Assembly: GCA_963664225.1 (NCBI GenBank)
Contig: OY760937.1
Span: 96,001 to 160,000 of the forward strand
Length of the DNA: 64,000 nt
DNA from: Verrucomicrobiia bacterium
GTDB taxonomy: Bacteria > Verrucomicrobiota > Verrucomicrobiia > Limisphaerales > UBA1319
Direction of reading: 5' to 3'
Part shown: in pieces, positions 14,621 through 62,658 of the stretch
Position numbering within the stretch: position 1 is the stretch's first letter
Layout: every line of letters begins with the position of its first letter
Notes under the pieces: model-generated
Databases searched by the model: none
Seen by the model: the letters and a program-made list of their open reading frames with translations, nothing else
Told to the model about the DNA's origin: nothing
Program-made: the position numbers and the translations under genes

Positions 14621-15290
14621 GGGTGCATGACAAAATTCAGGAAGCTGGTAAAAGCCTAAACCGTACGAACCCAGCCAGAACTCCAGCCGGCGGTGTGGGG
14701 CATATAATCCGGCGCGGCGGCATCCTCCAAACCGTGCAATAAACCCGCGACTCGCAATACTCCTCCCTCGCCTGGGGGGGTGGGGATGAGAATTCCCCGA
14801 ACCGAAAAGATCGCGCATTGAACCCCTGTACCAGGTATTTATGCAAGTAACTTGTAATGAAATACATCCCACTTTGGGTTCATGGGCAGGGCGTGCATCA
14901 ATGCCTTTTTCCATTTCGCATGGTTCGCATATTTCGTGGTCAAAATCCTTTTCAATTCCATTGTCCATCATCTATTTTCGCTGAACCAATCCCGCGCGGC
15001 GGCAATCACCCAAACCGTGCAATAAACCCAGGACCCGCAACACTTCTCCTTCTCCTGGGGGAGAAGGTCGGGATGAGGGCGTGCGTCAATGCCTTTATTA
15101 TTCCATTATCCATTGTCCACTATCAATTGTCCCTTATCCATTCTTCCCTCACCCATCCCCATCCATTTCCAAAACCTCCCTGTCCTCAACCCGGAACGGG
15201 TTGCATCACTCAGCCCCGGGTCGCGAGGCACGAGCCACCCGGGGTCCCCGTCCCCCAACATTCGCCTACGCTGTAAGCGTTGAATCAAAT
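14621..15290. repeat. Modular repeat cluster 1 (MITE A-end, REP-like palindromes, short periodic repeats)
   Basis: Blocks shared with 19335-21149, 54677-55312, 56334-57152 and 61575-62658. Confidence 0.9.
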
Positions 15291-15297
15291 TCAAACA

Positions 15298-15471
15298 ATG
15301 CCCTCCAATCCCCAGGCCCTTGACGTGCTCCTGCGCCGGGCCCGCAACCTCTGCCTCTCCGCCCTCATCGAAGCCGTGCGCGACCAGACCCGCATCGTCG
15401 ATCCCAAACAAGTCAACCGAGTGCTCATTCAACCCCATTGGAGGAAAGACTGTGACAGCCCCATCGCCTAA
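15298..15471 (+). pseudogene. Probable C-terminal fragment of an ExeA-like AAA ATPase from a DDE transposon
   Basis: LRRARNLCLSALIEAVRDQTRIVD...VNRVL resembles the lid end of ExeA-type ATPases (recognition only). No Walker motifs are present. Confidence 0.4.
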
Positions 15472-15763
15472 ATCCAACTTCTTGCCACATCCTCGAACGA
15501 CCAATCGGTGGACCCGCGAACAAATCCGCGCCGCCCGGATGGCCCCGCTGCCACCGCTCCTGACAAAGTACGGTCTGCAAACAACCCCGCTGCCCGCTGG
15601 CAATTTGGCACTGTCCGCCTTCAAGGGCCTGATCGTCAAAGACTCCTACTGGCGCTGGCCTGAACAAAACAAAGCAGGCAATGCCATCGACTTCCTTGTC
15701 CAAGTCCTTGGCCTCTCCTTCAACGAGGCCATGCACCAGATCATTGGAACACCGCAATCTTGA
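15452..15763 (+). CDS. Small protein resembling the C-terminal part of a primase zinc-binding-like domain
   Basis: GNAIDFLVQVLGLSFNEAMHQI motif; GTG start overlaps the preceding ORF. Confidence 0.55.
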   Translation: MTAPSPKSNFLPHPRTTNRWTREQIRAARMAPLPPLLTKYGLQTTPLPAGNLALSAFKGLIVKDSYWRWPEQNKAGNAIDFLVQVLGLSFNEAMHQIIGTPQS

Positions 15764-15937
15764 GATACAGCCATAAAACGCCGCTGGTGTCGCAGTGATG
15801 CGACGCCAGTGCGGCAAATTACGATCCCACCTCGGCATGATTACGACAGGAATTTGGCCCGGCCATAAGCGTCACATGCGTACGACCCGAGCGGGGCAAT
15901 CCGGCTGAAAAAGACGATGGCAGTTCGGCAATATCAC

Positions 15938-16372
15938 TTAAAACGCTGCGAGCTTAATTTGGCCAAAAGTACGACGCCAATTAATTTCGTAACAGCTGGG
16001 ATAAACTGACCATTTTTGACGACTCATCCGCCCCCAGGCAATGGCCTGTTGACGATAAAAATAGGTGGTTCGTTGTCTCCCGGGATCGTCTGTGGCCGCT
16101 GGAATGACACTGCAAAAAAGCTCAAATTGACGGGTGATTTTCTCGCGTGTCATTGGCTCCACCGATGGTGCATCTGCGGTAACGGCTAAAAGGTTTTTGC
16201 TGAATGCGGCCACTCGTTCAAGGGCTTCCTCGCGGGTGTTGGCGTGAACAAAACCAATCAATGGATTCATTTCCTCTGGCAGGAAAAGGAACCATTTTTT
16301 GTTTCCGTTACAGATCGATTGTGCGTTCCGGCTCTGGAGCTCTGATTCGTTGTTTTCTTGGGAAGTTTTCAT
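15938..16372 (-). CDS. Hypothetical protein (144 aa)
   Basis: Open frame with ATG start, immediately downstream of a large structured region. Confidence 0.55.
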   Translation of the reverse strand: MKTSQENNESELQSRNAQSICNGNKKWFLFLPEEMNPLIGFVHANTREEALERVAAFSKNLLAVTADAPSVEPMTREKITRQFELFCSVIPAATDDPGRQRTTYFYRQQAIAWGRMSRQKWSVYPSCYEINWRRTFGQIKLAAF

Positions 16373-16387
16373 GGTCTTTTTTTAAGA

Positions 16388-16822
16388 TCTGATGTGCGCT
16401 CTCGGTCTATCGCCCTTCACACCCAAGGCCCGCGAATCAGGGCGGATCGTGGGAGTAGTCTTCAGAGGGCACCGCCATGTCTTACCCCCTGTCGAAGTCG
16501 GTCTAAGAGGGCGATGATTGAAAGCGTCAGAAGTGAAATAAAATCTGAAAACGAGGGAACTCCATTTCCTCTATGAATGGAGCAAAGCGACCTGACCGGG
16601 AGGGGATGGGGCTGGCTCGCTCGTGAATTTCTGGAAGCCTTTAGCGGAGTGAAGCGGTTGGACGGGCTGTCAGTTCAAGGGAGCCCTATGAAAATTAACA
16701 GTCAGGCCAACCAGCGAAACGGAGCGGTGGCGAAAGAAAGCTCATCGAGGGAGCACCATGGGGGAGCGCAAGTCTTCCGATGTTTCAAGGCGTAGCTCTT
16801 TCAAGGGGAATCGAAAGCTCGG
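16388..16822 (-). promoter_or_regulatory. Highly structured non-coding region, possibly a ssDNA-promoter/ssi-like element
   Basis: Nested inverted repeats: ATCGCCCT/AGGGCGAT, CTCCATT/AATGGAG, GGTTGG/CCAACC, GCAAG..TCCGA/TCGGA..CTTGC. Confidence 0.45.
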
Positions 16823-16891
16823 ATGTCTTGCGGGGGGGGAGGACTCGTTCTGCTGAAATTTTCTATGGGATGGCTGTGGATAGCATTCATT

Positions 16892-17101
16892 TCAATGGTT
16901 GGTCCGATTCGAATCGTTGATTTGCTCAGTCCGTTTTGCAAGAGTCGCGTTTCGCAACTGTTCCTGTTGTTGCAGGAATTTCGTCCAGTCGGCAGCGGGA
17001 ACATTTGTAATATTGCCGCCAATAAGTAGCACGGCACGACCGCCAAAGAAATTGCGTTTTCCATTATAGTACAAACCCGCATGAGTTTCCATCGCATTCA
17101 T
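16892..17101 (-). CDS. Small hypothetical protein or gene fragment (69 aa)
   Basis: AGGAGG upstream on the minus strand; lies downstream of the immunity candidate. Confidence 0.35.
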   Translation of the reverse strand: MNAMETHAGLYYNGKRNFFGGRAVLLIGGNITNVPAADWTKFLQQQEQLRNATLAKRTEQINDSNRTNH

Positions 17102-17176
17102 TTATAGTACTCAACCTCCTTGTATAATAACCTTAAAGTATGATTTTCACATTTTAGAAACACGCGCTCAGAACAA

Positions 17177-17599
17177 TTAGTTCGTATCGTACACATAATA
17201 CACTCCATTTGTCAATTGACGCCGAAATCCGTAGTTGTTTATTTTAGCATCTGTGGAGCCAATCATTATACCTTCTCGCTCAATCCCAAGTTTAAAACCG
17301 ACAAAGATAAACTTAAAACCTGTTTGGGTATCTATCTGGATTTGGACAACTATCGGGTGGAGTCTGGAAAGTTGTTGAGGATAGACTGCAGGGGAGAATA
17401 TAAACCCATTCTCATTCGTTGAATTCAATTGATCTTTTGCCCATGTGACAATTGATACAAGTTCACTTTTATTTAAGACATTAACATTAAATGTTTCCCA
17501 TCTGACCTCCGGGTTTGTATTGTTTGAACTACAGCCAGCTACCAGCAGACCTGCTAAGAAAAAACACATATTTGATTTATACCAATTACTAAGAGACAT
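17177..17599 (-). CDS. Putative Rhs immunity lipoprotein
   Basis: AT-rich, lipobox LVAGC, starts 6 bp after the Rhs stop codon. Confidence 0.7.
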   Translation of the reverse strand: MSLSNWYKSNMCFFLAGLLVAGCSSNNTNPEVRWETFNVNVLNKSELVSIVTWAKDQLNSTNENGFIFSPAVYPQQLSRLHPIVVQIQIDTQTGFKFIFVGFKLGIEREGIMIGSTDAKINNYGFRRQLTNGVYYVYDTN

Positions 17600-17605
17600 A
17601 AAACA

Positions 17606-19366
17606 TTACTCAAATGGGAGTTTTTTGTTAGGATACCATCGCCAAACGAACGTTTTCAAACCACACGGACTACTCCGATTGGAATCGCATTGCGTTTGTT
17701 CAACAGGTGGTCCCACAGCCGACATTGATCCATAGCTTCCACCAAATCCGACAGTGGTAAACAACTTAGCGCCTTGATTATACTGTTCCGGATCACCATG
17801 GCTAGTTTTCCAGTAATCTACCGCAGCGATAGCCATCTGCTCGCTCCATATTTGACCAGTCACAGCTTGCCCCCAAGTTGGCGACATTGAATTGCCAACT
17901 GCATCAAGAACTCCTTGAAATCGCTGATGACATAAATTATTGACCTTTCCCCACATTAAATAATGAACATCTCCAGCAAAGAAACATCGCCCGCCATACT
18001 TTACAGTACGATCACACTTTGGCGCATCTCCGCGAATAGCGGCAGCCGGGAATGACCAGCCACCATATCCGAGATTGGCAAGTTGCATCATCATCCACGA
18101 TCCACTAGCTGTTGATAAAGGCATGTAAAGACTCCTACATGCGTTTGCAGCCTTTCCAACATCCCAACTCTTGAAAGTCGCTTCAATTTCATTGAGAGTT
18201 GATTGAACTGCTGTTGTCACGTCAGGCCCACACCTGCAAGTAGTTAAACCCAATGAATCAAATCTATCCACTGAGCGATTCCAAACGAACCCATACAAAT
18301 TGAGCCCTCCTTTCTCCGCAATCGGGTCTCTGGATAGCCACCTTCCAGTGCTGGCATTATAATACCGATACCCGTAATACACCAAATCTGTCTCATCGTC
18401 CTGGTATTTTGTCGAGAACCGGAAGGGGTTGAGCTTGGCCATGGGTCCTGTGGAGCGGAGGAGTTCACCGAAGGGGCCGTATTCATACCGGGCGCAGACC
18501 AAGCCATCAGCGGCATTGACCAGCGCGGTGAGGTTGCCGTTGCCATCGTAGGTCGCAAAACAATTCGTTGTTGCTGTGCCATAATAGGTGACCGCAAGCA
18601 ACCCACCCACACCACCAGCTCCTTGTGCGGTGCCACTCAAGTCCAGTCCCCACAGATAGGAACGGACCAGTTGATTGGCGCTGTTAAACTCGGCAACCAG
18701 GTTCCATCCATCGTAAAGGTATTTGGTATCTGTGATGATGGAGTTATCAGATTTCTTCACGGTCTTGCGAATGCGTCTTCCCCGCCAGTCATACTCGAAA
18801 ACCAAATGCTGCGCATCAGGTCCGGCAACCAGGCAATCCATCCCGATCAGCCGATTCTCCGCATCCCAAGTGTAACTCCACACCATGTCATTGATCATGT
18901 TTCCATCAGAATCAGGTGTGAAAGTCTGTGTCGCCGCCGGAACCAGCACATGGCCCGGAGCGCTCGTAGGCTGCTGGACAGTGCGACCGCCTTTTGTTGC
19001 CGTGACGAGCACTGGGGTCCAGACAGAGGCACTGCTATTTCCCGCAGTTCCAACCGCCTGGAAGTACTCATTTTTTCGATAAACGGTCTGGGCGCCGCCA
19101 TTGATTGTGACACCAACCGTTGCTGCCTTATTAGCATTACCCATCACATCAATCGAGGTCGAAACCTGTCTGCTGGTGTATTGGTTAACGGTATTGGCGG
19201 TATAGCTGGCCGTTCTCATGGCAATCACATCGTTGACAACAAACGCAGCCTGCTCTCCAAAAACCGCCTTGGCAACAGGAACTTTGCCGCCCTCTGGTTT
19301 GCCTTCCGCGTACTCGCGTCCATTCCTTCGTCCGTCAACCCCACGCGGCGGCACATTCCAAGTCAT
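17606..19366 (-). CDS. N-terminally truncated Rhs-core protein with C-terminal toxin domain
   Basis: YTWDAENRL, YEYGPFGE, PFRFSTKYQDDET, YYGYRYY, GRWLSRDPI, DSLGL boundary (18245-18259). The 5' end merges into the repeat cluster; a start near 19219 is possible. Confidence 0.88.
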   Translation of the reverse strand: MTWNVPPRGVDGRRNGREYAEGKPEGGKVPVAKAVFGEQAAFVVNDVIAMRTASYTANTVNQYTSRQVSTSIDVMGNANKAATVGVTINGGAQTVYRKNEYFQAVGTAGNSSASVWTPVLVTATKGGRTVQQPTSAPGHVLVPAATQTFTPDSDGNMINDMVWSYTWDAENRLIGMDCLVAGPDAQHLVFEYDWRGRRIRKTVKKSDNSIITDTKYLYDGWNLVAEFNSANQLVRSYLWGLDLSGTAQGAGGVGGLLAVTYYGTATTNCFATYDGNGNLTALVNAADGLVCARYEYGPFGELLRSTGPMAKLNPFRFSTKYQDDETDLVYYGYRYYNASTGRWLSRDPIAEKGGLNLYGFVWNRSVDRFDSLGLTTCRCGPDVTTAVQSTLNEIEATFKSWDVGKAANACRSLYMPLSTASGSWMMMQLANLGYGGWSFPAAAIRGDAPKCDRTVKYGGRCFFAGDVHYLMWGKVNNLCHQRFQGVLDAVGNSMSPTWGQAVTGQIWSEQMAIAAVDYWKTSHGDPEQYNQGAKLFTTVGFGGSYGSMSAVGPPVEQTQCDSNRSSPCGLKTFVWRWYPNKKLPFE

Positions 19367-20820
19367 CCAATCGTCCAGAAAACGCGAAACAGTCCTCCCT
19401 CTCCGCTCTGGGGACCACGATGCGCGAAGCGCACGTCCCTTATTGGGCCACCAACTCGTGGCGGGCTTGGGAAGCCATTGGGCGGGGTGAGGTGGCTGGT
19501 CCCATCATTCCCGTCCAAATACACCAGCAACCCCCACTCCTCATTCTCCTGGGGGCCGGGATGAGAATTTCCCTAAACCAGGTATTTGTGCAAGTTACTT
19601 GTAATGAATTACATCCCACTTTTTGGTTCATGGGAAGGGCGTGCGTAAATGCCTTTTTCCATTTCGTATGGTTCGCATATTTCGTGGTCAAACTCGGTCC
19701 CTTTTCCCTATCCGTGCAATCCGTCATATCCGTGGTTAAAAATCTGCCCCCGCCAACCCCACGCGGCGGCACCTTCCAAACCGTGCAAAAAAACCAGGAC
19801 TCGCAATACTCCTCCCTCTCCGCTTTGGGGACCACGATGCGCGAAGCGCACGTCCCTTATTGGGCCACCAACTCGTGGCGGGCTTGGGAAGCCATTGGGA
19901 CGGGGTGAGGTGGCTTTTCGTATCCCATCATTCGCATCCAGGGTGTTCGTTTTTTCGATGCCTCAATTGTCCATTTTCTCCCTCATCCGTGCCATCCGTG
20001 CCATCAGTGCCATCAGTGGTTAAAAATCCTGCTCATCCTGCTTATCCATGTTGATATTTCTTCACCCACTTCTTTCCATGTAACTTGTAATGAAAGACAT
20101 CCCACTTTGGGTTCATGGGGAGGGATGAGAATTCCCCGAACCGAAAAGATCGCGCATTGAACCCCTGAACCAGGTATTTATGCATGTTGCTTGTAATGGA
20201 AGACATCGCACTTTTGGGTTCATGGGTAGGGCGTGCGTCAATACGTTTTCCATTTCGCATATTTCGTGGTTAATTTCCTTTTTTCTTTTCTTGTCAATCA
20301 TCCATTCTCCACTCGCCAACCCCACGCGGCGGCACCTCCAAACCACCCACTTGGTCATATGTCAATTGTCCCCTCGCCAACACGGTGCGGCCGTATCCTC
20401 CAAACCGTGCAAAAAAACCAGGACTCGCAATACTCCTCCCTCTCCGCTTTGGGGAGAGGGACGGGGTGAGGTGGCTTTTCGTATCCCATCATTCGCATCC
20501 AGGGTGTTCGTTTTTTCGATGCCTCAATTGTCCATTTCCTCCCTCATCCGTGCCATCCGTGCCATCAGTGGTTAAAAATCCTGCTCATCCTGCTTATCCA
20601 TGTTGATATTTCTTCACCCACTTCTTTCCATGTAACTTGTAATGAAAGACATCCCACTTTGGGTTCATGGGGAGGGCGGTCGTCCTTTCGTATCTGACTT
20701 TTGCCGGACCCTCAATCGGCGCCCGGCCATTCCCGAAACTCTTGCATTATTTGTTTCTTATATACTCACAAGCCCTTTTTAAGGACTTTTTTGCTCGCCG
20801 AAGAATTATGTCCTGCACCC
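19335..20820. repeat. Modular repeat cluster 2 ending in the MITE B-end
   Basis: Internal duplication (~19775-20125 vs ~20398-20676); ~20320-20680 is a near-identical inverted copy of ~54730-55075. Confidence 0.9.
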
Positions 20821-20829
20821 TCTTCTTCA

Positions 20830-21149
20830 GGGTGCAGGACATAATTCAGGAAGCTGGTAAAAGCCTAAACCATACGAACCCATCCAGGACTCCAGTCTGC
20901 GGTGTGGGGCATGGTATCCGACGCGGCGGCATCCTCCAAACCGTGCAATAAACCCAGGGCTCGCAATACTCCTCCTTCTCCTGGGGGAGAAGGCCGGGTT
21001 GAGGGCGGTCGTCCTTTCGTATCTGACTTTTGCCAGACCCTCAATCGGCGCCCGGCCATTCCCGAAACTCTTGCTATATTTGTTTCTTATGTACTCACAA
21101 GCCCTTTTTAAGGACTTTTTTGCTCGCCGAAGAATTATGTCCTGCACCC
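20830..21149. mobile_element. Minimal 320-bp MITE
   Basis: Perfect 18-bp TIRs GGGTGCAGGACATAATTC/GAATTATGTCCTGCACCC and perfect 9-bp flanking repeat TCTTCTTCA (20821-20829, 21150-21158). Confidence 0.92.
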
Positions 21150-21330
21150 TCTTCTTCATTCGCCCGATTTGCGGACTTGATTTGCCTTGGGTCATGGTTT
21201 ACAGAATTGGGTCGTAAAGCTGTAATTGGGTCTTGAGTGTGGGGATCATATTGTGCAACTTTTGCCAACCTTGGCGCCAATGGAGTTGGCTCCGGGAGGG
21301 CAAGTCCGGTGTGGGTTTGCGTATTAATAA

Positions 21331-22218
21331 ATGAGAGCTTTGATTATCGCCGCGTTGTTTTGGGTCCAGTTCCCGGTCGCCCAAGCCGCTGAGGCGTCCG
21401 CCGAGGCGGAAGGCCATGGCATTCCTTTGCACGCGGTTGAAATCTTCAAAATTGGGCCGTTTCCCATCACCAATTCCATTCTGGTCACCTGGTTTGTGGC
21501 TCTGGGCATCATCCTGTTCGCCCGCCTGGCCACCCGTCAAATGCGCGACGTTCCCTCGGGCGCGCAGAACTTGTTGGAATGGCTGGTGGAGGGGCTCTAT
21601 GATTTTCTTACGGGCATCATTGGATCGACCCTGGCCAAAAAGACCTTCTGGTTTTTCGCCACGGTTTTCATTTTCATCCTGAGCGCGAACTGGTTCGGAT
21701 TGATCCCCGGAGCCGGCACGATTGGCTGGGGGCATGCGGGCGAGAAAGGGTTCGTCGTCACCGAACCGTTCTTTCGCGGGGTCAACGCCGATCTGAACAT
21801 GACATTTGCGATGGCGATGATTTTCTTTGTTCTTTGGACGGTTTGGGCGCTGCAAATCAACGGCATCAAGGGATTCTTTATGCATATTTTCGGGGCTCCC
21901 AAAGGAGACATGCAGGGCATCATGAAGTTTGTGATGGCGGCAGTGTTTTTGATGGTCGGTTTGCTGGAGGTCGTTTCGATTATGTTTCGACCCGTTTCTT
22001 TGAGCTTTCGTCTATTTGGAAACGTCTATGCGGGTGAGAACATGCTCGAGGCGATGTCCAACATCGTCCCCCAACTCAACTGGCTCATCCCGGTGCCGTT
22101 TTATTTTCTGGAAGTATTGGTGGGCCTGATTCAGGCCATGGTGTTCATGTTATTAACGGCGGTGTTTACGCAGCTCATTTGCCAGCACGAGGAGGACCCC
22201 GGGGCCGCGCACCATTAA
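21331..22218 (+). CDS. atpB: F0F1 ATP synthase subunit a
   Basis: RPVSLSFRLFGNVYAGE, GLIQAMVF. Confidence 0.96.
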   Translation: MRALIIAALFWVQFPVAQAAEASAEAEGHGIPLHAVEIFKIGPFPITNSILVTWFVALGIILFARLATRQMRDVPSGAQNLLEWLVEGLYDFLTGIIGSTLAKKTFWFFATVFIFILSANWFGLIPGAGTIGWGHAGEKGFVVTEPFFRGVNADLNMTFAMAMIFFVLWTVWALQINGIKGFFMHIFGAPKGDMQGIMKFVMAAVFLMVGLLEVVSIMFRPVSLSFRLFGNVYAGENMLEAMSNIVPQLNWLIPVPFYFLEVLVGLIQAMVFMLLTAVFTQLICQHEEDPGAAHH

Positions 22219-22285
22219 AGAAACAATTTCGGCGGCTGGATCGTGGCAAACGCGAGGGCCGCTGACCAAAGCACAAAGGAAACGT

Positions 22286-22501
22286 ATGATGATCCCCCTG
22301 TTAGCGGAAATGAATGGCAATATCCACATCGCTGGCGCCTGTTTGGGCGCGGCACTGGGTGTGGGCTTGATTGGCGCAAAAGCCTCGGAAGCGGTCGGAC
22401 GCAATCCAGGCGCATCCACGAAGGTCCTTGTTCAGGCCATTCTGAGCACGGCCTTCGCCGAAGGTATCGTGTTTTTCGCGATTTTCCTGGCGGGTAAGTA
22501 A
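22286..22501 (+). CDS. atpE: F0F1 ATP synthase subunit c
   Basis: Gly-rich helix, GRNP loop, FAEG carboxylate. Confidence 0.95.
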   Translation: MMIPLLAEMNGNIHIAGACLGAALGVGLIGAKASEAVGRNPGASTKVLVQAILSTAFAEGIVFFAIFLAGK

Positions 22502-22505
22502 TTCG

Positions 22506-22545
22506 CGGATGCGGTGATTTGAAGTCACCGCGTCCGTTTACTTTG
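22506..22545 (+). terminator. Intra-operon hairpin after atpE
   Basis: CGGATGCGGTGA-TTTGAAG-TCACCGCGTCCG followed by TTTACTTTG. Confidence 0.55.
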
Positions 22546-22555
22546 TTTCGGTGTT

Positions 22556-23107
22556 ATGAATTCGTATATTTTATTGGGCAATATTGCCGGGGACTTGAGC
22601 CAGTCGGGGCGTGAAGTCGTCACCACGTTCGGTTTGAGCTGGCCGGCGTTCATCGCGCAGGTGATCAGTTTCACCATTGTGGCCCTGGCTCTGCGCCAAT
22701 GGGCTTACAAGCCCATCCTGCAGGTGCTTGAATTCCGCCGCCAGACCATTGCCGACGGTATTTCCAACGCGGAAAAGATCAAAGCCGAACTGGCAAAGGC
22801 CGAGACGGCCCGCAAGGAAATCATCGTCCAGGCCAACGCCCAGGCCAATGAATTGATCGCCGAAGCGCGTGCCGCTGCAAGCCGCGTCAACGAGGTCGAG
22901 ATTCAAAAAGCGGTGGCCGCCGCCGAACAGATCATTGCCAAGGCGCGCGAGGCGGCTCTGGCCGACCATGCCAGGATGCTTGCCGATCTCAAACGCGAAG
23001 TGGGCCGGCTGGTGGTCGAAACGACTGTCCGGGTCTCCGGCAAGGTGCTGACGATGGAGGATCAACAGCGGTTGATCCGGGAAACCAATGACCAACTGGC
23101 CGCCTGA
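22556..23107 (+). CDS. atpF: F0F1 ATP synthase subunit b
   Basis: One TM segment, WAYKPI...RR, Ala-rich coiled coil; operon position. Confidence 0.94.
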   Translation: MNSYILLGNIAGDLSQSGREVVTTFGLSWPAFIAQVISFTIVALALRQWAYKPILQVLEFRRQTIADGISNAEKIKAELAKAETARKEIIVQANAQANELIAEARAAASRVNEVEIQKAVAAAEQIIAKAREAALADHARMLADLKREVGRLVVETTVRVSGKVLTMEDQQRLIRETNDQLAA

Positions 23108-23139
23108 AGCGCTGCCGTGACGAAACAACGGATTCTCCC

Positions 23140-23535
23140 ATGAAAGCCTCCAAACTGGCCCGCCGCGAAGCAAAAACGCTCCTGAAACTGTGCAGGGTCG
23201 ATGGCCTGATCGATGCCTCCCGCGTTCAACTCGTGGTCAACCGGTTGATCGCTACAAAACCCAGGCAATATGTGGCGATTCTGACCGATTTCTATCGCCT
23301 TTTTCGGCTGGAAACCGAGATGAAAGCCGTTCAGGTTCAAACCGTTATCCCCTTGTCGGACACTTTGAAGTCCGACTTGCAGGCGAATCTGGATCGGCGT
23401 TATGGCAAAGGCCTCGAATATCAGTTTTCACAAAATCCCGCTTTGCTGGGCGGCATGCGTGTCCAGGTGGGCAGCGATGTTTTCGACGGCAGCATCCGCG
23501 CGCGATTGAATGCGCTGGAAGAAAAATTTAACTGA
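23140..23535 (+). CDS. atpH: F0F1 ATP synthase subunit delta (short form)
   Basis: [25 protein letters not shown]. Confidence 0.92.
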
Positions 23536-23537
23536 AC

Positions 23538-25079: not shown

Positions 25080-25142
25080 AGGTCTGTTTACCCTTTGGCC
25101 TGTCAACCATCTGGCCTGTTGGCCAATGCGGTGTTTTTCAGA

Positions 25143-25172
25143 AGGCAGGAGGTTCTCGCGGGCTTCCTGCCT
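25143..25172. terminator. Hairpin between atpA and the convergent rhomboid gene
   Basis: AGGCAGGAGGTTC-TCGC-GGGCTTCCTGCCT. Confidence 0.6.
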
Positions 25173-25191
25173 CTTCATGTACGCAGGCTGC

Positions 25192-25749: not shown

Positions 25750-25831
25750 TGGCGCGATGATGCCGGTCGCGCGCGTTGGGGTAAAAGAAAAAATGGACTG
25801 TGCGATGACCTGTTGGACCGGGGATGTGGTG

Positions 25832-25859
25832 TTGAAAAGGTGGGCCGACAAGGTATAAT
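25832..25859 (+). promoter_or_regulatory. Sigma-70-type promoter candidate for metF
   Basis: TTGAAA-16 nt-TATAAT. Confidence 0.55.
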
Positions 25860-25942
25860 CCACATTGCCTTGCGCGGATGAGACATGGTGTGATGCCGGG
25901 GAAGGAATTGTTATTTGGTTCTAACGGAAAATCAGGGTCCTT

Positions 25943-50437: not shown

Positions 50438-50511
50438 GCGGGTGTAGCTTAGTGGTAAAGTTCCAGCCTTCCAAGCTGGCCATGTGGGTTCGATTCCCAT
50501 CACCCGCTCCA
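50438..50511 (+). tRNA. tRNA-Gly (TCC)
   Basis: GCGGGTGTAGCTTAGTGGTAAAGTTCCAGCCTTCCAAGCTGGCCATGTGGGTTCGATTCCCATCACCCGCTCCA. Confidence 0.97.
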
Positions 50512-52029: not shown

Positions 52030-52240
52030 ACTCCGTTCCGCGGCGCAAGTTGTGAGGTGAGTTCCTTAAAGGGCGCAACCAGAGAGGGTTATCCGACAGC
52101 AGGTAGCGTTCAACCGGTTGACCACGGGTTGAACGCTGGTCAACCGAAGTGGTGCAAACCAGTTTTTGAGGCAGGTGACCTGGCTTTAAGAACCAGGCCA
52201 CCTTCGTTGTGGAAACAACTGTTGTATTCCGCCGGGAGCT

Positions 52241-54361: not shown

Positions 54362-54676
54362 TATTTATTTTTGGTTTGTTTGTTCTGCGAAGATTATTTG
54401 ACGATCGATTGGCGATACACGGGGGCGGGGCAGATTGCCTGGGCATCTGCAAAAGCACGACGAAGTCGCGGCGGATCATTTTTGGACGCGTGCAACATGG
54501 ATTCAATTAACTTCAGGAGCAGAGTCCTTCTCATTTGAGGACGCCCATATATTGAAATAATGGAAATTCCATTTTTTACCCAAACGCGTGCCCGGGTGAT
54601 TAGGTTTTTGACTTCGGCTATGCTGCGAACTCTATATCGTTCATGGCAGTCGTCAAGAACTTTGACAATGGTTAAA

Positions 54677-55312
54677 GGGCGTAAGACAAAATTCTTTGGC
54701 AAGCGAAAAAGTCAGATCTGAAAGGACGACCGCCCTCCCCATGAACCCAAAGTGGGATGTCTTTCATTACAAGTTACATTAAGTGGGTGAAGAAATATCA
54801 ACATGGATAAGCAGGATAGGCAGGATTTTTAACCACGGATGGCACGGATGAGGGAGGAAATGGATAATTGAGTCATCGAAAAAAACGAACACCCTGGATG
54901 CGAATGATGGGATACGAAAAGCCACCTCACCCCGTCCCTCTCCCCAAAGCGGAGAGGGAGGAGTATTGCGAGTCCTGGTTTTTTTGCACGGTTTGGAGGA
55001 TACGGCCGCACCGTGTTGGCGAGGGGACAATTGACATATGACCAAGTGGGTGGTTTGGAGGTGCCGCCGCGTGGGGTATGGAGGGGAGAATGGATAAGTG
55101 ACAATTGATAATGAATAATAATAGAAAAAAAGAAATTGACGCACGCCCTCATCCCGGCCTTCTCCCCCAGGAGAAGGAGGAGTATTGGGGGATATCGGTG
55201 TAATTGGATGGTTTGGGAGCGGCCGCCGCGTGGGGTATGGAGGGGAGAATGGATAAGTGACAATTGATAATGGACAATGATAGAAACAAAGAAATTGACG
55301 CACGCCCTCATC
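54677..55312. repeat. Modular repeat cluster 3 starting with a degenerate MITE B-end
   Basis: GGGCGTAAGACAAAATTCTTTGGCAAGCG resembles 56334 onward, with an internal deletion; the same downstream modules follow. Confidence 0.85.
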
Positions 55313-55396
55313 CTGCAGACCAAGTTGGCCCCCAAACTTGCCGCTTGATATCCTCGTCCCGTCTGCCAACCTGCCGGTTTTAAAGCGCACGTTAAA

Positions 55397-56377
55397 ATGG
55401 CAAAACCACCGACATCGTTCCAAAGACGCCTGCTCAAGGGCCTGTTGATCCTGATGGCCGTTTTTGCCCTTGGCATGGGGACGCTCATCGCGGTGTTCTC
55501 TTATCAGGTTCACCGCGCAAACGGCGAGGTCCTCACGAGTGGAACGAAACGCGCCTACCTGCTGTATGTACCCAAAAGCTACCAGAGCAACCAGCCGACG
55601 CCGCTCGTGATCTGCATCCACGGTTTTGGCGAATGGCCGGCGCACGTCATGGACATCAGCCGCTGGAACCGCCTCGCCGATGAATTTGGTTTCCTGGTGG
55701 TCTATCCCAGGGGCAGCAGATTCCCGCTCCATTGGGCCAGCAATGACCGCCCGAACGAAGGGGTCCGGTCCCGGCGGGATGTGCAGTTCATTTCCGACCT
55801 GATCGACCAGTTGGGCCGTGAATACAACATCGATGCGAAGCGGGTTTACGCCAACGGCCTCTCCAATGGTGGCGGCATGTCGTTTCTGCTCGCCTGCAGG
55901 CTGTCGGAACGCATCGCGGCGATTGGCGGCGTTTCCGGGGCTTACCTCATGCCCTGGAGCGCCTACACCCCGCAGCGTCCAGTGCCGACCATCCTCTTTC
56001 ACGGCACGGCGGACAAAATCGTGCCCTACCACGGCGGCCCCTCGCGCATGTTCAAAGTCCCCTTTCCCGATGTTCCGGAGTGGGTGCAATCGTTGGCGGC
56101 CCGTAATGGCTGCGACCCCACTCCCGTCCCATTGATTCCCGTTGGCGAAGTCACCGGAGTGCGCTATTCGGGCGGCGCGTCAAACGCCGAAGTCGTGTTC
56201 TACACCGTGGCCGGTGGCGGTCATACATGGCCCGGGGGCAAGGATATGCCGGCCTTTATTACCGGGCTCACCACCCACGATGTGGACGCCACCCGACTCA
56301 TGTGGGAGTTCTTCCAGCAACATCCGATGAACAGGGTGCATGACAAAATTCTTCGGCGAGCGAAAAAAGACCTTTAA
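55397..56377 (+). CDS. PHB-depolymerase/LpqC-family esterase
   Basis: PLVICIHG, DVQFI, GLSNGG, HGTADKIVPY, GGGHTWPG, WEFFQQH. Confidence 0.9.
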   Translation: MAKPPTSFQRRLLKGLLILMAVFALGMGTLIAVFSYQVHRANGEVLTSGTKRAYLLYVPKSYQSNQPTPLVICIHGFGEWPAHVMDISRWNRLADEFGFLVVYPRGSRFPLHWASNDRPNEGVRSRRDVQFISDLIDQLGREYNIDAKRVYANGLSNGGGMSFLLACRLSERIAAIGGVSGAYLMPWSAYTPQRPVPTILFHGTADKIVPYHGGPSRMFKVPFPDVPEWVQSLAARNGCDPTPVPLIPVGEVTGVRYSGGASNAEVVFYTVAGGGHTWPGGKDMPAFITGLTTHDVDATRLMWEFFQQHPMNRVHDKILRRAKKDL

Positions 56378-57152
56378 AAGGCCTTGTGAGTATATACGAA
56401 ACAAATATAGCAAGAGTTTCGGGAATGGCCGGGCGCCGATTGAGGGTCCGGCAAAAGTCAGATCTGAAAGGACGACCGCCCTCCCCATGAACCCAAAGTG
56501 GGATGTCTTTCATTACAAGTTACATGGAAAGAAGTGGGTGAAGAAATATCAACATGGATAAGCAGGATGAGCAGGATTTTTAACCACTGATATCACGGAT
56601 GAGGAAATGGATAATTGAGAAATCGACCGGCAGCGAATTACAGAAAAGGGTTGACGCACGCCCTCATCCCGGCCTTCTCCCCCAGGAGAAGGAGGAGTAT
56701 TGCGAGCCCTGGATTTGATGCACGGTTTGGAAGGTGCCGCCGCGTGGGGTTGGTTCATGAAGGAAACTTCAGTTGGAGGGGGAATTAAGGCACGCCCTCC
56801 CCATGAACCCAAAGTGGGATGTCTTTCATTACAAGTTACATGGAAAGAAGTGGGTGAAGAAATATCAACATGGATAAGCAGGATGAGCAGGATTTTTAAC
56901 CACGGATGGCACGGATGAGGAAATGGATAATTGAGAAATCGACCGGCAGCGAATTACAGAAAAGGGTTGACGCACGCCCTCATCCCTTCCTTCTCCCCCA
57001 GGAGAAGGAGGAGTATTGGGAGCCCTGTGTTTATTGCACGGTTTGGAGGATGCCACCGTGCCGGACTACATGCTCCACACCGCCGACTGACGTTCGGGCT
57101 GGGTTCGTACGGTTTAGGCTTTTACCAGCTTCGTGAATTTTGTCATGCACCC
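56334..57152. mobile_element. 819-bp expanded MITE
   Basis: Perfect 18-bp TIRs GGGTGCATGACAAAATTC/GAATTTTGTCATGCACCC; flanks CGATGAACA/CCATGGACA (7/9); internal tandem duplication of roughly 315 bp. Confidence 0.88.
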
Positions 57153-57207
57153 CCATGGACATTCACTGAATTGTTTTCCTCCATCAAACGTCATAAAATC
57201 CATGTTC

Positions 57208-58998
57208 ATGAAAACGAGCCTGTTAAATACTCCGCGCTTTGAAACGCCTGTGCGGTCGGCCATGGGATTGCTCTCGCTCTCCATCCTGCTGCTCTGCGCG
57301 TTGGCCCCGCGCGCCGCCGCCGTGTCGGTGATGATTCAGGACTTTGAGAAAGCCTCGATCCAACCCTCCGTCTGGGTCGTGAACATCCCCAACGAAAACG
57401 CCTCCGTCCAATCTTCCACCGATTCGGCGCATGATGGGAAACAAGGCTTGAAGCTGCATTACCATTTTGTCGGCGCGGGCCAGTTCCAGTACCTCGGCAT
57501 TCCCAACAAGGTCCGCATCCTGGCCCCGGTTCACAAACTCCATCTCTGGATCAAAGGTGACCATTCGCTCTGTTCCCATGGCGTGCAGGTGAACGATGCC
57601 AGCGGCGAGACACACCAATACAAGGGTTCGAGCCTGGGCAAAAACATCGACTTCACCGGATGGAAAGAGGCCGTCATCGATCTGGACGCGAACCACGAAA
57701 CCTGGGGCGGCGATAAGAACGGCAAAATCGATTACCCCATCACCACCATCACCTTCACCGTGGGCCAGCCTCAGGAAAACGAAAAACCGCTCGCCGCCGA
57801 AGGCGACCTCTCCTTCGATTCCCTCAGCGTGGACTCCGAGAAAAGCGCCGACGAAACCCTGGGATGCCAGGTCTCCGTGATCTCGCCCGCCTATTGCGCG
57901 GAGGTGAAGGGCGACACCGCCGTCACTCTTGCCGCCCCCGGTTTCAAGAGCCTGACCGTGAAATGCTGGAAACAGGGCGACGGCTTTGGAGCCGATTCCA
58001 CCCTCGCCACCGTCGATCTCGATGCCAAAGGCGGCGGCTCCTTCGTTTTCCCCGCCGACCAGTATCCGCACGGACCGGTCACCGTGAGAATCGTCGGTCA
58101 GAACGGCGCGGTCAAAGACAACTGCTATCTCCAGCTCTACAACAAGGGCGGCGTTTCCTGGAACGAAGGCATCCCTTCCGACCCACCCCCGGCGGCGAAA
58201 GGAATGTCCCTCGTCTTTGCGGACGACTTCAAGGGGTCTCTCTCCATCTCCAGCACGGACACCAACGCCACCTATTACGATCACAAGCCGCCGGGCGGCT
58301 GGCAGGATTTCAGCGTCCATAATTTCTCCAGCCACGATTCCCCGAAAAACCCCTTTGCCCAGGTCGATTCCTACCTCCGCATCCGGGCCAGCGACCAGAC
58401 CCACAGCGCGGGCCTGATCTCCTCGATGAAAAACAACGCCACCGGCATCACCGCCAGGGCACCCTGTTATTTCGAATGCCGGTTCATTGGCCCCAACGCC
58501 ATCGGCACATGGCCCGCCTTCTGGCTCATGACCGATTACATGACCGCCCAGGTCAAAGGCAAAAAAGTGCCGTGCGATGAACTGGACATTGTGGAAGCCT
58601 ACGGCGGCGAAGGCCCCCGCGAACCCAACGCGTTCGACACCTACATGATCACCCCCCACTGCTGGGATCAGGGCGAGACGGGCAAGGCCATCGAGAAAAA
58701 AGCCTTCGAGGGCCTGCACAACCCGGTTCGCATGGGCCAATCCGGCATTCCCTCCACCTGGTTCGACACCTTCCACACCTACGGCTGCAAAGTCACCGAG
58801 GCGGACACCATTTACTATTGCGACAACATCGAAGTGGGACGCCACGCCACACTCCCGCTCTCCAGGAACCAGCCGCTGTTTTTCCTCATCAACCTCGCCA
58901 CCGGCGGCGGATGGCCCGTCGATCTGTCCCGCTACAATGGCCTGGCGGACATGTATGTGGACTACGTCCGGGTTTACAGCACCGCCCCGGCAAAATAG
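57208..58998 (+). CDS. GH16 glycoside hydrolase with N-terminal CBM-like domain
   Basis: WPAFWL, ELDIVE catalytic motif, FHTYG, INLATGGGWP, VDYVRVY. Confidence 0.88.
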   Translation: MKTSLLNTPRFETPVRSAMGLLSLSILLLCALAPRAAAVSVMIQDFEKASIQPSVWVVNIPNENASVQSSTDSAHDGKQGLKLHYHFVGAGQFQYLGIPNKVRILAPVHKLHLWIKGDHSLCSHGVQVNDASGETHQYKGSSLGKNIDFTGWKEAVIDLDANHETWGGDKNGKIDYPITTITFTVGQPQENEKPLAAEGDLSFDSLSVDSEKSADETLGCQVSVISPAYCAEVKGDTAVTLAAPGFKSLTVKCWKQGDGFGADSTLATVDLDAKGGGSFVFPADQYPHGPVTVRIVGQNGAVKDNCYLQLYNKGGVSWNEGIPSDPPPAAKGMSLVFADDFKGSLSISSTDTNATYYDHKPPGGWQDFSVHNFSSHDSPKNPFAQVDSYLRIRASDQTHSAGLISSMKNNATGITARAPCYFECRFIGPNAIGTWPAFWLMTDYMTAQVKGKKVPCDELDIVEAYGGEGPREPNAFDTYMITPHCWDQGETGKAIEKKAFEGLHNPVRMGQSGIPSTWFDTFHTYGCKVTEADTIYYCDNIEVGRHATLPLSRNQPLFFLINLATGGGWPVDLSRYNGLADMYVDYVRVYSTAPAK

Positions 58999-59304
58999 AA
59001 TCACCCAAACATGTAAAGACCGAACGCCAGCGCAGCGTCTTCGCGCCGGCGTTCCCCTATATATTTAGTGTCCATTAGTTCTAAACAGCGGAATATTCCA
59101 TATGTTTCATTGCTCTTTGCGGTTAACTCCTTTTATATTCATCCCCTCTATTATTAGTGTTTATTAGTGTTAATTAGCGGTTTAATCCATTTGTTTATTT
59201 GCGGTCTATGCGCTCTTTGTGGTTAAATATCCCTAGCCCATTTTTCCCGTAATTCGCGGCTTTATCCCCCTGAGCTCATTCGTTCAGGCCTCATTTGAAC
59301 CGAC

Positions 59305-59340
59305 AAAAAAAACCGCCTCAATTGGAATATTGGGCGGTTT
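59305..59340 (-). terminator. Terminator for the minus-strand pilin/lipoprotein pair
   Basis: A-tract plus AACCGCCTCA...TGGGCGGTT stem. Confidence 0.65.
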
Positions 59341-59384
59341 GCGGAACTGTATCCTTGAGCTTGAGTGTTTTCCCTTATGTTGCC

Positions 59385-59747
59385 TTAGCGCAAGGTTGTC
59401 TTCTTAAGTTCGTCGAGCGCTTTGTTGGCAGCTTCATCCCCATTGCGTGCTGCTTCGTACATCTTATCCGAAAGCGCCTGTGATGTATCCGATACCGCTT
59501 TTCTTTGTTCCGTTGTGAGCGCTGGATTATCGAATACGTTCTTCAGGGCCATGCTGGCGGCAAAGTAATCGTTGCTTTTGAGCAGGCTTTTTGCCTGGTC
59601 CCACTGGCCCTTGACCTCCGCACTTGCAGATTGGAACACCTTGTCGCGGGCCGGATCTACAGTCGTGGTTTTTTTCTCCCCGCCACAGCCCGCCACAAAC
59701 AGCGAGACCGCAGCCGCACCTGCCAATATAACGCTATTAAATCTCAT
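59385..59747 (-). CDS. Hypothetical lipoprotein
   Basis: FVAGC lipobox and helical body; starts 21 bp after the stop of the pilin-like gene. Confidence 0.8.
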   Translation of the reverse strand: MRFNSVILAGAAAVSLFVAGCGGEKKTTTVDPARDKVFQSASAEVKGQWDQAKSLLKSNDYFAASMALKNVFDNPALTTEQRKAVSDTSQALSDKMYEAARNGDEAANKALDELKKTTLR

Positions 59748-59768
59748 ATAATATACCGTTACAGGAAC

Positions 59769-60575
59769 TTATCGCCCATTATCCGTTGCTGGATTGCACC
59801 AAAGCAAACCCTTCGTGGTCTTTAAGGATTCCTTGTCGAAGGTATCAAATTTGATAAACTCGACATGCCCGCCAAATCCGGCAATGACCGCTCCCTTGAC
59901 ATGTTTTTTGCCCACGCCTTCGCCTCTGTCTGGATAGCTGCTGGCGTCATTATACGCGAACTCTCCAATGGGCTGGTTGCCATTGTTCGGATTGAGTTTG
60001 TCTTCGTCAGGCTCCCACATCATATAAGCCGTCGGTTTGAACATGGTTTGCTTAAAGGTGTTGGGTTTTACCTTGGTTACTGCAGTGCTTTTGGTCCCAT
60101 ATCCGCAAACCGCCCCGTTCATGATGTATGTGGACATTTTATTTAGTCGTCTGAAAAAATATTTCCCATTGGTCTTGTCGAGTGGGCAGGTATAGACTTG
60201 GGTCTTCTTGATGAGATTCCACAAAGCACCACCGCTGTATGCCACTTGAGGATTCAAGCGGTTGGCTGCCGACCACATGTCCGGCGGGTTGCCGTTCCCT
60301 GTATAGAGCCAGCCGGCACCTTCAATCGGATCACTGCCCCAGTTGGGATAAGGCAACTGGTCGTTGTTGTCGTTGCAATACATCTGCATGGCCAGTGTGA
60401 ACTGTTTGTTGTTGTTCACGCAGTAGGTGCGGATGCTTTTTTCCTTGGCCTTGGACAGGGCGGGAAGGAGCATGCCGGCAAGAATCGCGATGATGGCGAT
60501 GACGACGAGCAGCTCGATGAGTGTGAACCCCTTGCGGAATCCTCCCTCTTGGATTGGGTATCCAGGTGCTTTCAT
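59769..60575 (-). CDS. Prepilin-type N-terminal cleavage/methylation protein
   Basis: [26 protein letters not shown]-terminal [16 protein letters not shown]. Confidence 0.9.
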
Positions 60576-61011
60576 AATTTTGAACATTGGTTGAACAGGT
60601 TTGCCGATTCTTGATCTTTTTCCACGGCGTGTCAACGACACGTTTTTAGAAAGCTCACGCACCGGCTGTAACCAACCATTACTGACACTCAAGCCCCATG
60701 CCAACTGTGCGTTTTAAGGCACATCTCGGGGACTTTTTGCCCGCTTCACCCCATGAAATCACAAAACAGCCCCCCAGAAGCCTTCTTCCCCGCTCCTTTT
60801 CTGCGTTCCACCCGTTTTTTACGGTTAAAAATCCTGTCCATCCTGAATATCCATGTTGAATTCTCTTCGCCAGCCGTCCGCCTAATTCGCTGTTCGCTGT
60901 TTTTTTTCATTTCATTGTCCATTTTCCATTGTCAATTATCCATTTCCCCCCGCCCTCCGCCTTCCGCCCCCCGTCATTTGACAATCCGGGCCCTCCGGCG
61001 ATGTTAAGCCC

Positions 61012-61563
61012 ATGAATAGAGTATTTGTGTTCTTAACTTTGCTAATCATGAGTATCGCCCCTGTCCATGCGGTCACCAACGACCTTTACCAGATTCCGCT
61101 CAAGGATCTCGACGGCAAACCCGCCACCCTGGCTCCTTATCGCGGAAAGGTTCTGCTGCTGGTCAATGTCGCCTCCAAATGCGGGCTCACCCCCCAATAT
61201 TCCGCCCTCGAATCCGTTTACGAGAAATACAAGGACAAGGGATTCGTGGTGCTCGGATTTCCGTGCAACGATTTTGCCGGCCAGGAACCCGGATCCAACG
61301 AAGAGATCCGCCAGTTTTGCAGCGCCAATTACAAGGTCACTTTCCCCCTTTTCGACAAGCTCCATGTCAAAGGCCCGGAACAGCATCCCTTGTATGAGGT
61401 TTTGACGGGCAAGGAGGCGGCTTTCCCGGGCGATGTGGCCTGGAATTTCGGCAAATTTCTCGTGTCGGCCGATGGGAAGATCATTCAACGTTTCGAACCG
61501 AAGACCACCCCTGACGATCCGAAGGTCACCAAAGCCATCGAAACCGCGCTGGCCGCAAAATAA
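61012..61563 (+). CDS. Glutathione peroxidase family protein (Cys type)
   Basis: VNVASKCGLT, LGFPCNDF, WNFGKFL. Confidence 0.95.
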   Translation: MNRVFVFLTLLIMSIAPVHAVTNDLYQIPLKDLDGKPATLAPYRGKVLLLVNVASKCGLTPQYSALESVYEKYKDKGFVVLGFPCNDFAGQEPGSNEEIRQFCSANYKVTFPLFDKLHVKGPEQHPLYEVLTGKEAAFPGDVAWNFGKFLVSADGKIIQRFEPKTTPDDPKVTKAIETALAAK

Positions 61564-61574
61564 TCCCTCAGAGG

Positions 61575-62658
61575 CGCCCCGGGTTTATTGCACGGTTTGG
61601 AGGATGCGACGGCGCCGGGTTGGTTGAGGGAGGAAACTTTAGTTGGAGGGGGAATCAGGGCACGCCCTCATCCCGCCCTTCTCCCCCAGGAGAAGGAGAA
61701 GTATTGCGAGTCGCGGGTTGTTTGGACGGTTTGGGAGGTGGCTGCCGCGTGGGGTATGGAGGGGAGGATGGACAATTGACAATGGACAATAATAGAAAAA
61801 AAGAAATTGACGCACGCCCTCATCCCGGCCTTCTCCCCCAGGAGAAGGAGGAGTATTGCAAGTCGCGGGTGTTTGGACGGCTTGGGAGGTGGCTGCCGCG
61901 TGGGGTTGGTTTGCAAAGGAAACAGCGGTTGGAGGGGGGAAATAGGGCACGCCCTCATCCCGGCCTTCTCCCCCAGGAGAAGGAGAAGTATTGCGAGTCT
62001 TGCGTATATTGCACGGTTTGGAGGATGCGACGGCGCCGGGTTGGTTTAGGGAGGAAACTTTAGTTGGAGGGGGAATCAGGGCACGCCCTCATCCCGCCCT
62101 TCTCCCCCAGGAGAAGGAGAAGTATTGCGAGTCGCGGGTTGTTTGGACGGCTTGGGAGGGGCTGCCGCGAGGGGTTGGTTTGCAAAGGAAACAGCGGTTG
62201 GAGGGGGAAATAGGGCACGCCCTCATCCCGCCCTTCTCCCCCAGGAGAAGGAGAAGTATTGCGAGTCGCGGGTTGTTTGGACGGCTTGGGAGGGGCTGCC
62301 GCGAGGGGTTGGTTTGCAAAGGAAACAGCGGTTGGAGGGGGAAATAGGGCACGCCCTCATCCCGCCCTTCTCCCCCAGGAGAAGGAGGAGTATTGCGAGT
62401 CGCGGGTTGTTTGGACGGCTTGGGAGGTGGCTGCCGCGTGGGGTTGGTTTGCAAAGGAAACACCGGTTGGAGGGGGAAATAGGGCACGCCCTCCCCATGA
62501 ACCCAGAGTGGGATGTCTTTCATTACAAGTTACATGGAAAGAAGTGGGTGAAGAAATATCAACATGGATAAGCAGGATGAGCAGGATTTTTAACCACGGA
62601 TGGCACGGATAGGGTCCAGTTTGGCGTTTACCAGCTTAGTGAATTCTGACCTGAGCTC
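61575..62658. repeat. Tandem array of ~134-bp REP-containing units ending in a degenerate MITE A-end
   Basis: CACGCCCTC anchors at 61661, 61813, 61948, 62082, 62216, 62350, 62485; GGCGTTTACCAGCTTAGTGAATTCTGACCTGAGCTC at 62623-62658. Confidence 0.92.

Follow-up and report, generated by a model that had tools for sequence, protein, structure and literature searches.

A miniature element family with ISKra4-type ends in a Verrucomicrobiia genome carries a hairpin hot spot at which its copies probably swell in place

Mobile insertion cassettes (MICs) consist of insertion sequence (IS) ends placed around passenger genes without a transposase, and the bacterial interspersed mosaic elements (BIMEs) of enterobacteria are mosaic clusters of repetitive extragenic palindromic (REP) units with fixed linker motifs. 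In this study, we analysed a family of miniature inverted-repeat transposable elements (MITEs) that is like each of these in part and is found in the genome of a Verrucomicrobiia bacterium (UBA1319). The window, that is, the whole stretch of DNA under analysis, comprises 64,000 nt (positions 96,001-160,000 of contig OY760937.1, assembly GCA_963664225.1) of a genome that forms one 5.78-Mb contig without N, with 56% GC. Our data suggest that this MITE family is probably driven by an ISKra4-type transposase and that its copies probably swell in place at a hot spot that they carry themselves, a hairpin unit here called R.

The ISKra4 group belongs to the Mutator-like p-MULT 4 (Guerillot et al. 2014, PMC3942029). 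According to the main text of that paper, p-MULT elements have inverted repeats (IRs) of 18-39 bp with a terminal C and direct repeats of 8 or 9 bp, and their circular intermediates hold the IRs 6-10 bp of flanking DNA apart. Some ISKra4 members target promoters. The paper's main text reports four ISKra4-group elements with passenger genes and does not mention MITEs; likewise, no description of ISKra4-related MITEs appeared among the titles and abstract openings in the literature searched. REP sequences are described as preferred IS targets (Tobes and Pareja 2006, PMC1525189; ISPpu9, PMC12288879), and IS110 elements as guided by a bridge or seek RNA (PMC11208160, PMC11187229), in the sections of these papers on which we draw.

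A 320-bp MITE family is represented in the window by three copies and one remnant, and is bounded by an 18-bp terminal inverted repeat (TIR) followed by two distinct ends, A and B. The canonical copy, M2, has the ends GGGTGCAGGACATAATTC and GAATTATGTCCTGCACCC, which are perfectly complementary over 18 bp, and the 9-mer TCTTCTTCA on both sides (9/9). Two enlarged copies, of 6.2 kb (M1) and 819 bp, have flanks that agree at 8/9 and 7/9 (CGATGAACA / CCATGGACA for the latter, which is inverted relative to M2, with its B end on the left), and both TIRs of each are recognisable with 2 mismatches to the consensus. That one TIR bounds all three forms had been proposed in an initial annotation of this DNA, and it can be read directly from the junctions. 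The elements, in which X denotes a small repeat module, are:

14612..14620, no strand: 9-mer TCTTGTTCA, left flank of the 6.2-kb copy, agreeing at 8/9 with two 9-mers further right
14621..20820, + strand: M1, 6.2-kb enlarged MITE copy, A end left and B end right, flanks TCTTGTTCA/TCTTCTTCA (8/9)
20821..20829, no strand: 9-mer TCTTCTTCA between M1 and M2, forming with both TIRs an 18-bp-stem hairpin
20830..21149, + strand: M2, canonical 320-bp MITE copy, with A end, R hairpin unit (about 20923-21007) and B end
21150..21158, no strand: 9-mer TCTTCTTCA, right duplication of M2
54677..55236, - strand: MITE remnant with a degenerate B-end TIR (4 mismatches), X and R modules and no A end
56334..57152, - strand: 819-bp enlarged copy, with A-half, X, R, X and B-half (read A to B)

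The B-half of the remnant lacks MITE positions 203-285. The 819-bp copy is composed of A-half (57152-56975), X (56974-56800), R (56792-56659), X (56658-56484) and B-half (56476-56334), with GAGGGCG at each module joint.

The family extends over the whole genome. The consensus TIR, GGGTGCAGGACAAAATTC (18 bp), was searched for on both strands with at most 3 mismatches allowed. It occurs 77 times in the forward and 83 times in the reverse direction, compared with 1 and 2 occurrences of the reversed pattern, which served as the control. Among 42 neighbouring left-right TIR pairs, the flanking 9-mers agree at 9/9 in 12, at 8/9 in 5 and at 7/9 in 7, so that 17 of the 42 reach 8 or 9 of 9, and across all pairings of 165 ends 22 agree with at most one mismatch, compared with 1.4 by chance. 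The number of TIRs relative to the control, together with this agreement of the flanks, shows that the family is not a product of chance. The A/B type is one of several subfamilies with a common TIR. Ten full A/B copies of 318-329 bp align end to end, and BLAST over the genome detected 24 B-halves as well as 28 A ends. Elements of about 200 bp make up other subfamilies, and a further end type measures about 167 bp. Open reading frames (ORFs) across the canonical copy are repeat read-through only, consistent with a small, multicopy element without a transposase.

TIR ends followed by AGGAGTGTGGAA were considered as intron starts; this was rejected, and they represent the further end type of about 167 bp. 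One 171-bp end of a further MITE subfamily is located at window positions 2927-3097 (- strand), where a TIR with 3 mismatches is followed by AGAAGTGTGGAA; it sits between M16 peptidase and S41 protease genes and has about a dozen similar ends genome-wide. Elsewhere, at genome positions 1678575-1679428, three co-oriented B-type TIR ends lie about 390-445 bp apart and resemble a tandem array of MITE ends.

The genome has a single ISKra4-family transposase locus. It belongs to a 1755-bp IS at 5.219 Mb (genome positions 5219103-5220857), whose tips, GGGTGCAGGACAAAAATC and GGGTGCAGGACAAAATTC, are the family TIR, and whose transposase scores 246 bits on NF033572 (cut-off 205) and also matches UPF0236. 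The expectation of a Mutator-like parent, with ISKra4 among the families named in the initial annotation, is therefore borne out. The coding region of the IS consists of a 139-aa DUF6788 ORF followed by a 437-aa ORF that overlaps it at an A9 run. The likeness to the ISKra4 group as described (PMC3942029, main text) extends to the IRs of about 18 bp that end in C and are nearly perfectly complementary, to the 9-bp repeats and to the transposase family, and target duplications of 8-9 bp are those expected of an ISKra4-derived MITE. Unlike ISKra4 ISs, the window elements have no transposase and have only about 18-24 bp at each end in common with the IS. The window MITEs are likely moved in trans by this sole ISKra4 IS, whose transposase would act on the ends of the 320-bp element; since the overlap is limited to these 18-24 bp per end, we infer this mobilisation rather than observe it. 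As a separate observation, the IS lies upstream, at a distance of about 1 kb, of an open frame of 1662 codons (5221908-5226893) that resembles the rhs fragment of M1 described below.

The R hairpin is a fixed part of the canonical MITE, occupying positions of about 140-180 in 10 of 10 aligned copies. It has an 8-bp stem and a 4-nt loop, its core has 86 genome matches compared with 16 for the control, and its stem variants retain pairing (CCTTCTCC/GGAGAAGG and CCCTCTCC/GGAGAGGG), so it has the character of a short, extragenic, many-copy REP-like hairpin. The interiors of these copies had been described as shuffled combinations of a REP-like palindrome, a CCCATGAACC module and periodic blocks. 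These components are present and shuffled, with periodic blocks of 9 and 14 nt, but the palindrome turned out to be an integral part of the element and not a later addition. Outside MITEs, R is found as a unit of 134 bp that is repeated head to tail in arrays, such as the one at 61812-62493, within the following feature:

61573..62610, - strand: array of R units that stands free of any TIR and has an X module at its end, with a 134-bp period (5.1 copies by TRF, about 7 by BLAST)

After R units, X, a further module Z and the periodic blocks recur in many combinations; together with R they form variable, co-oriented arrangements with the joint motif GAGGGCG(T/G). In this respect they are like BIMEs; unlike BIMEs, there is no R-flanked gene for a REP-associated tyrosine transposase (RAYT), and the units are 134 bp long and form head-to-tail arrays. 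A RAYT was considered as the mover of the R unit, and this idea was dropped because none of the nine Y1_Tnp genes in the genome has a nearby R core. None of the repeat modules (R, X, Z and others) matches an Rfam family.

Two further observations concern hairpin repeats. A different repeat, of the GGGTCGCGAGG..CCACCCGGGG type and with about 54-77 copies, flanks several of the nine Y1 genes, as classic REPs do; one copy lies inside the 6.2-kb element (15205-15283), and the type also occurs at genome positions 3201989-3203100. Moreover, sequences 85-98% identical to the 41-nt hairpin part of R (window 20961-21010) are present in 10 relatives, which belong to several families of the order. A single genome has as many as 14 of them, and the remainder of the MITE is absent from these relatives.

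To locate the enlargements, the canonical copy was mapped on the genome and the junctions of the six enlarged A/B-type copies were read. These are the 6.2-kb and 819-bp copies of the window and copies of 504 bp, 1873 bp (IS110), 1716 bp (IS481) and 2400 bp (IS1634). All six are interrupted between MITE positions of about 150 and 188, and the break region corresponds to the 3' edge of the R hairpin unit, at about 170-188. The nested ISs are multicopy elements with boundaries of their own and belong to IS110 (two types), IS481, IS1634 and IS701; with ISKra4 itself, the TIR-bounded elements of 1.7-2.4 kb thus represent five transposase families. The proposal that the copies accept other elements therefore held, in that IS110, IS481, IS1634 and small modules have all entered the MITE at a single hot spot in its interior. 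As has been described for REP-targeting ISs (PMC1525189, PMC12288879, in the sections cited), IS110-family and other ISs are found repeatedly at one point of a short hairpin repeat. Unlike those targets, the hairpin here rides inside a MITE, so that the MITE inherits the hot spot.

The age of the inserts could be compared with that of their hosts in two cases. In the first, one IS110 type lies at the identical point (MITE position 39/40) in two copies of the roughly 200-bp MITE, which are flanked by separate 9-bp duplications (9/9 and 8/9). Its identity as IS110 is indicated by matches to PF01548 and PF02371, that is, a DEDD transposase, together with the repeated insertion point. The IS110 parts of the two copies are 99.4% identical, compared with 67% and 79% for the MITE parts, which indicates two recent, independent and site-specific insertions. 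Of five copies of the second IS110 type, two are inserted within the arm of the R hairpin. Separately, MITE copy c5534821 (genome 5534958-5535000) has an extra TTGTATTT in the hairpin arm at the insertion point of one IS110 type, which might be an excision footprint of an IS110 starting with CTTGTATC.

In the second case, 7 of 24 B-halves adjoin module X, and the junction is identical in all of them. For four of these copies, similarity is 95-98.5% in X and 88-92% in the attached B-halves. On the B-half tree the X-bearing copies are scattered, with 7 changes, equal to the number for shuffled labels, and with at least 3 changes forced by well-supported branches. When the same insert is far younger than the MITE around it, either repeated insertion in place or gene conversion is indicated. 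As judged from the sequences of these two datable cases, the evidence points to enlarged copies that grew in place rather than moved in enlarged form. Copies would swell because the R hairpin that they carry is a target for other elements and for recombination. Site-specific elements would enter at the 3' edge of R, namely IS110 of an RNA-guided type, one type each of IS481 and IS1634, and the modules X, Z and R, and dispersed R, X and Z copies would recombine or convert at this hot spot. The 819-bp copy would then be a 320-bp element to which X, R and X were added.

Alternatively, the enlarged forms, including the 6.2-kb copy with its rhs fragment, may be functional cargo cassettes moved as units by the ISKra4 transposase. 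The 6.2-kb and 819-bp forms keep both TIRs and flanks that agree at 8/9 and 7/9, the copies of 504, 1873, 2400 and 1849 bp have perfect 9/9 duplications, and ISKra4-group elements with passenger genes have been reported (PMC3942029, main text). However, a perfect duplication is silent on whether the insert preceded or followed the landing of the MITE, and in both datable cases the insert is younger than its host copy. Each enlarged form is also unique in the genome, with the exception of the 1849-bp form, whose twin has MITE parts that are only 67-79% alike, and the right 9-mer of the 6.2-kb form is at the same time the left duplication of M2. Genome-wide, no enlarged form was found twice with different duplications or with matching divergence inside and outside. 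We therefore consider transposition of cargo cassettes quite unlikely, and the earlier idea that the enlarged forms are mobilised as growing shells is not supported.

We favour growth in place also for M1, which has the following parts:

14621..14790, + strand: A-half, MITE positions 1-174, TIR at 14621-14638, 85.9% identical to the M2 A-half
14791..15315, + strand: left repeat zone (0.7 kb), with Z, R, a 14-nt block and a second REP type
about 14791-14905: mini-element Z (about 110 bp) in the left zone
14982-15089: R unit in the left zone
15102-15142: 14-nt periodic block in the left zone
about 15205-15283: RAYT-associated REP type in the left zone, with about 54 genomic copies
15316..19192, no strand: single-copy core (3.9 kb), GC 0.50, falling to 0.37 at 17177-17605
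17177..17599, - strand: 140-aa ORF that immediately follows the rhs fragment on its downstream side; N-terminus lipoprotein-like
17606..19366, - strand: 586-aa ORF, 5'-truncated rhs fragment with an RHS_repeat match
19193..20671, + strand: right repeat zone (1.6 kb), with co-oriented P, Z-right, R, X and the 9-nt block CATCAGTGC
20672..20820, + strand: B-half, MITE positions 172-320, TIR at 20803-20820, 97.3% identical to the M2 B-half

M1 and M2 form a tandem in the order 9-mer, M1, 9-mer, M2, 9-mer, in which the middle TCTTCTTCA is shared and is the sole separator. The joint of B-TIR, 9 bp and A-TIR folds into a perfect 18-bp-stem hairpin (-20.5 kcal/mol, z -12) and has the IR, 9 bp, IR geometry of the p-MULT circle junction described in the main text of PMC3942029. 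A second tail-to-head junction, with an 8-bp spacer (4479648/4479657), could not be resolved as a clean tandem pair.

The core of M1 is single-copy, and only short stretches of it recur elsewhere in the genome. The 586-aa ORF shares 42-44% identity with the C-terminal third of two other open frames of the genome, which have about 2025 codons, and its first 52 or so codons lie within a repeat module. Neither its C-terminal tip of about 200 aa, nor the 140-aa ORF, nor the small ORFs of the core matched any Pfam family at E up to 1. The GC content is low in the rhs tip (0.46) and in the 140-aa ORF (0.37). The fragment looks like an orphan rhs tip followed by a possible immunity gene, a role suggested by the position of the latter.

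With passenger DNA between both IS-type ends (14621-20820), the 6.2-kb copy has exactly the layout of a MIC. Unlike MICs, it carries as passenger only a truncated piece of a gene, within an interior full of repeats, and it is known as a layout and not as a moved unit: its flanks agree at 8/9 but the right 9-mer is that of its neighbour, its core is single-copy, and the inserts that were dated elsewhere are younger than their hosts. The initial annotation had the element accepting genes, and an rhs fragment and small ORFs are indeed inside it; capture followed by transposition is no likelier as their source than recombination between modules, which we consider an at least equally likely route of entry for the rhs core. 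The MITE might even act as a portable landing pad, whose embedded hairpin would have allowed dispersed modules to load a low-GC rhs toxin tip and a putative immunity gene by recombination, with the cassette retaining both ends for transposase binding and still movable by the sole transposase, which we regard as very doubtful. If true, it would be a route by which polymorphic-toxin tips are shuffled independently of the main rhs locus.

M1 bears signs of recombination with a distant locus. Its segment 20125-20671 shares 98.9% identity with genome positions 1659672-1660218, at 1.66 Mb. Across M1, M2 and this locus, the B-half agrees at 98.6-100% over its first 73 bp; over its last 76 bp, M1 and M2 remain 96% identical, and identity to the 1.66-Mb locus is 83-84%. 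This drop within the B-half marks a conversion tract that ends inside it. No ISKra4-type A end was found in the examined stretch at 1.657-1.660 Mb. The outer 9-mers of two other copies that lie 1.66 Mb apart (2001564-2001872 and 3658237-3659952) are reverse complements of each other (9/9 and 7/9), which suggests an inversion by recombination between inverted MITE copies.

These traces of recombination between copies, namely the conversion tract and the reverse-complement flanks, could also mean that the 6.2-kb form is not one element, and that its A-half and B-half came from different copies joined by homologous recombination, with the rhs core as trapped chromosomal DNA. In agreement with this, the A-half of M1 resembles that of its neighbour (85.9%) no more than it does those of unrelated copies (up to 91-92%), solo halves occur, as seen from the 28 A ends and 24 B-halves, and the DUF4197/atpB neighbourhood of the locus is not conserved, with atpB not beside DUF4197 in 5 of 5 relatives compared. 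However, the left flank of M1 agrees at 8/9 with the 9-mer of its neighbour, a match with a chance of about 1 in 9400 for one flank pair, and therefore the A end of M1 belongs to this insertion site. Moreover, every module in both repeat zones of M1 is oriented A-to-B. On balance, an origin of M1 from halves of two different copies seems unlikely.

It was also considered whether the enlarged forms are assembly artefacts, that is, collapsed or chimeric repeats. The region is dense in repeats with up to about 66 genomic copies, and short-read contigs break at every repeat: none joins across 14621-20829 or 20830-21158 and none runs from flank to core, so that they decide nothing on assembly or polymorphism. 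The contigs of the two runs nevertheless agree without difference with the core (15228-16816 and 16803-19236) and with the two outer junctions (14300-14658 and 21057-21500), the genome is a single contig without N, and five other enlarged copies elsewhere have the same break region. Hardly any weight can be given to an artefact. In run X16, positions 17192-18155 had no cover.

We then return to growth in place as the preferred account of M1, for which a history in three steps would be the most economical. A MITE would have landed at TCTTCTTCA; a tandem pair would have arisen, either as a dimer resembling a circle junction or by re-insertion into the same 9-mer; and M1 would have been filled from dispersed modules by insertion and conversion.

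The distribution of the family was examined in 31 genomes, including that of the host. The full 320-bp element was found only in the host's own genome. In 10 relatives, the matches are restricted to the hairpin part (positions of about 136-185), some of them occurring many times, and in two relatives of the same family to the last 25 nt, the TIR; one genome of the same genus (93% complete, 230 contigs) gave no match to the element. The exact 18-nt consensus occurs in 71 stretches of a species-representative collection, 52 of which are in records with Verrucomicrobia titles, frequently at a distance of about 100 nt from the end of the contig, which is where a multicopy IS would be expected to lie. 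Two Verrucomicrobia records have an R-type hairpin directly after the TIR, and one has a 63-bp mini-element with little beyond two TIRs. Thus, the IS lineage is widespread in this phylum, and the link between TIR and hairpin recurs. The A/B MITE itself was absent from the search results for the other genomes and for metagenome contigs.

Several results weigh against the account given here. No empty site was found in 30 relatives, in which the best match to the left flank and flanking gene is 73% identical; as identity in the flanking gene is only about 70% and the neighbourhood is not conserved in the relatives, no empty site is readable in them. Metagenome scans with a 22-nt stretch of the left flank and a 24-nt stretch of the A end gave 0 matches each. 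The sole ISKra4 IS copy has no target duplication (flanks 2/9), and its transposase is encoded in two overlapping frames joined at the A9 run, so that its activity is assumed. In favour of the account, among the 120 best homologues of the 437-aa ORF, 118 are 425-458 aa long and the other 2 are 546-552 aa, which indicates that the two-frame layout is normal for the clade and not a local defect. The R core lies within 2 kb of none of the nine Y1 (RAYT-like) genes. The B-half tree, built on 142 columns, is weakly resolved, with 10 of 20 inner branches open, and the higher identity of X could stem from conversion instead of fresh insertion, the two being indistinguishable here. Finally, the A-halves of M1 and M2 are much less alike than their B-halves, and a simple tandem-dimer origin would need a later conversion of the A side. 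With these points taken into account, we still consider it probable that an ISKra4-driven MITE with an R hot spot gave rise to copies that swelled in place.

Besides these elements, Rfam detected only two tRNAs and one intron domain in the window. The latter is a group II intron domain at positions 20-120 (+ strand; RF00029, 49 bits with a gathering score of 40), and the body of the intron would lie upstream of the window.

Taken together, the components of this system are known: MITEs, IS insertion into hairpin repeats (PMC1525189, in the sections cited), mosaic repeat clusters and cassettes with IS ends. Nothing here alters the current understanding of such systems, and the locus represents a well-documented but fairly ordinary nesting of mobile elements. 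The analysis adds to the ISKra4 group, which has been little studied, a family of MITEs from Verrucomicrobia. For annotators, it implies that variants of a MITE that differ in size are not necessarily mobile, and that perfect target duplications around a large form do not prove that the large form moved. It also provides a clean, datable example of how a mobile element becomes a nest for others by carrying their target.

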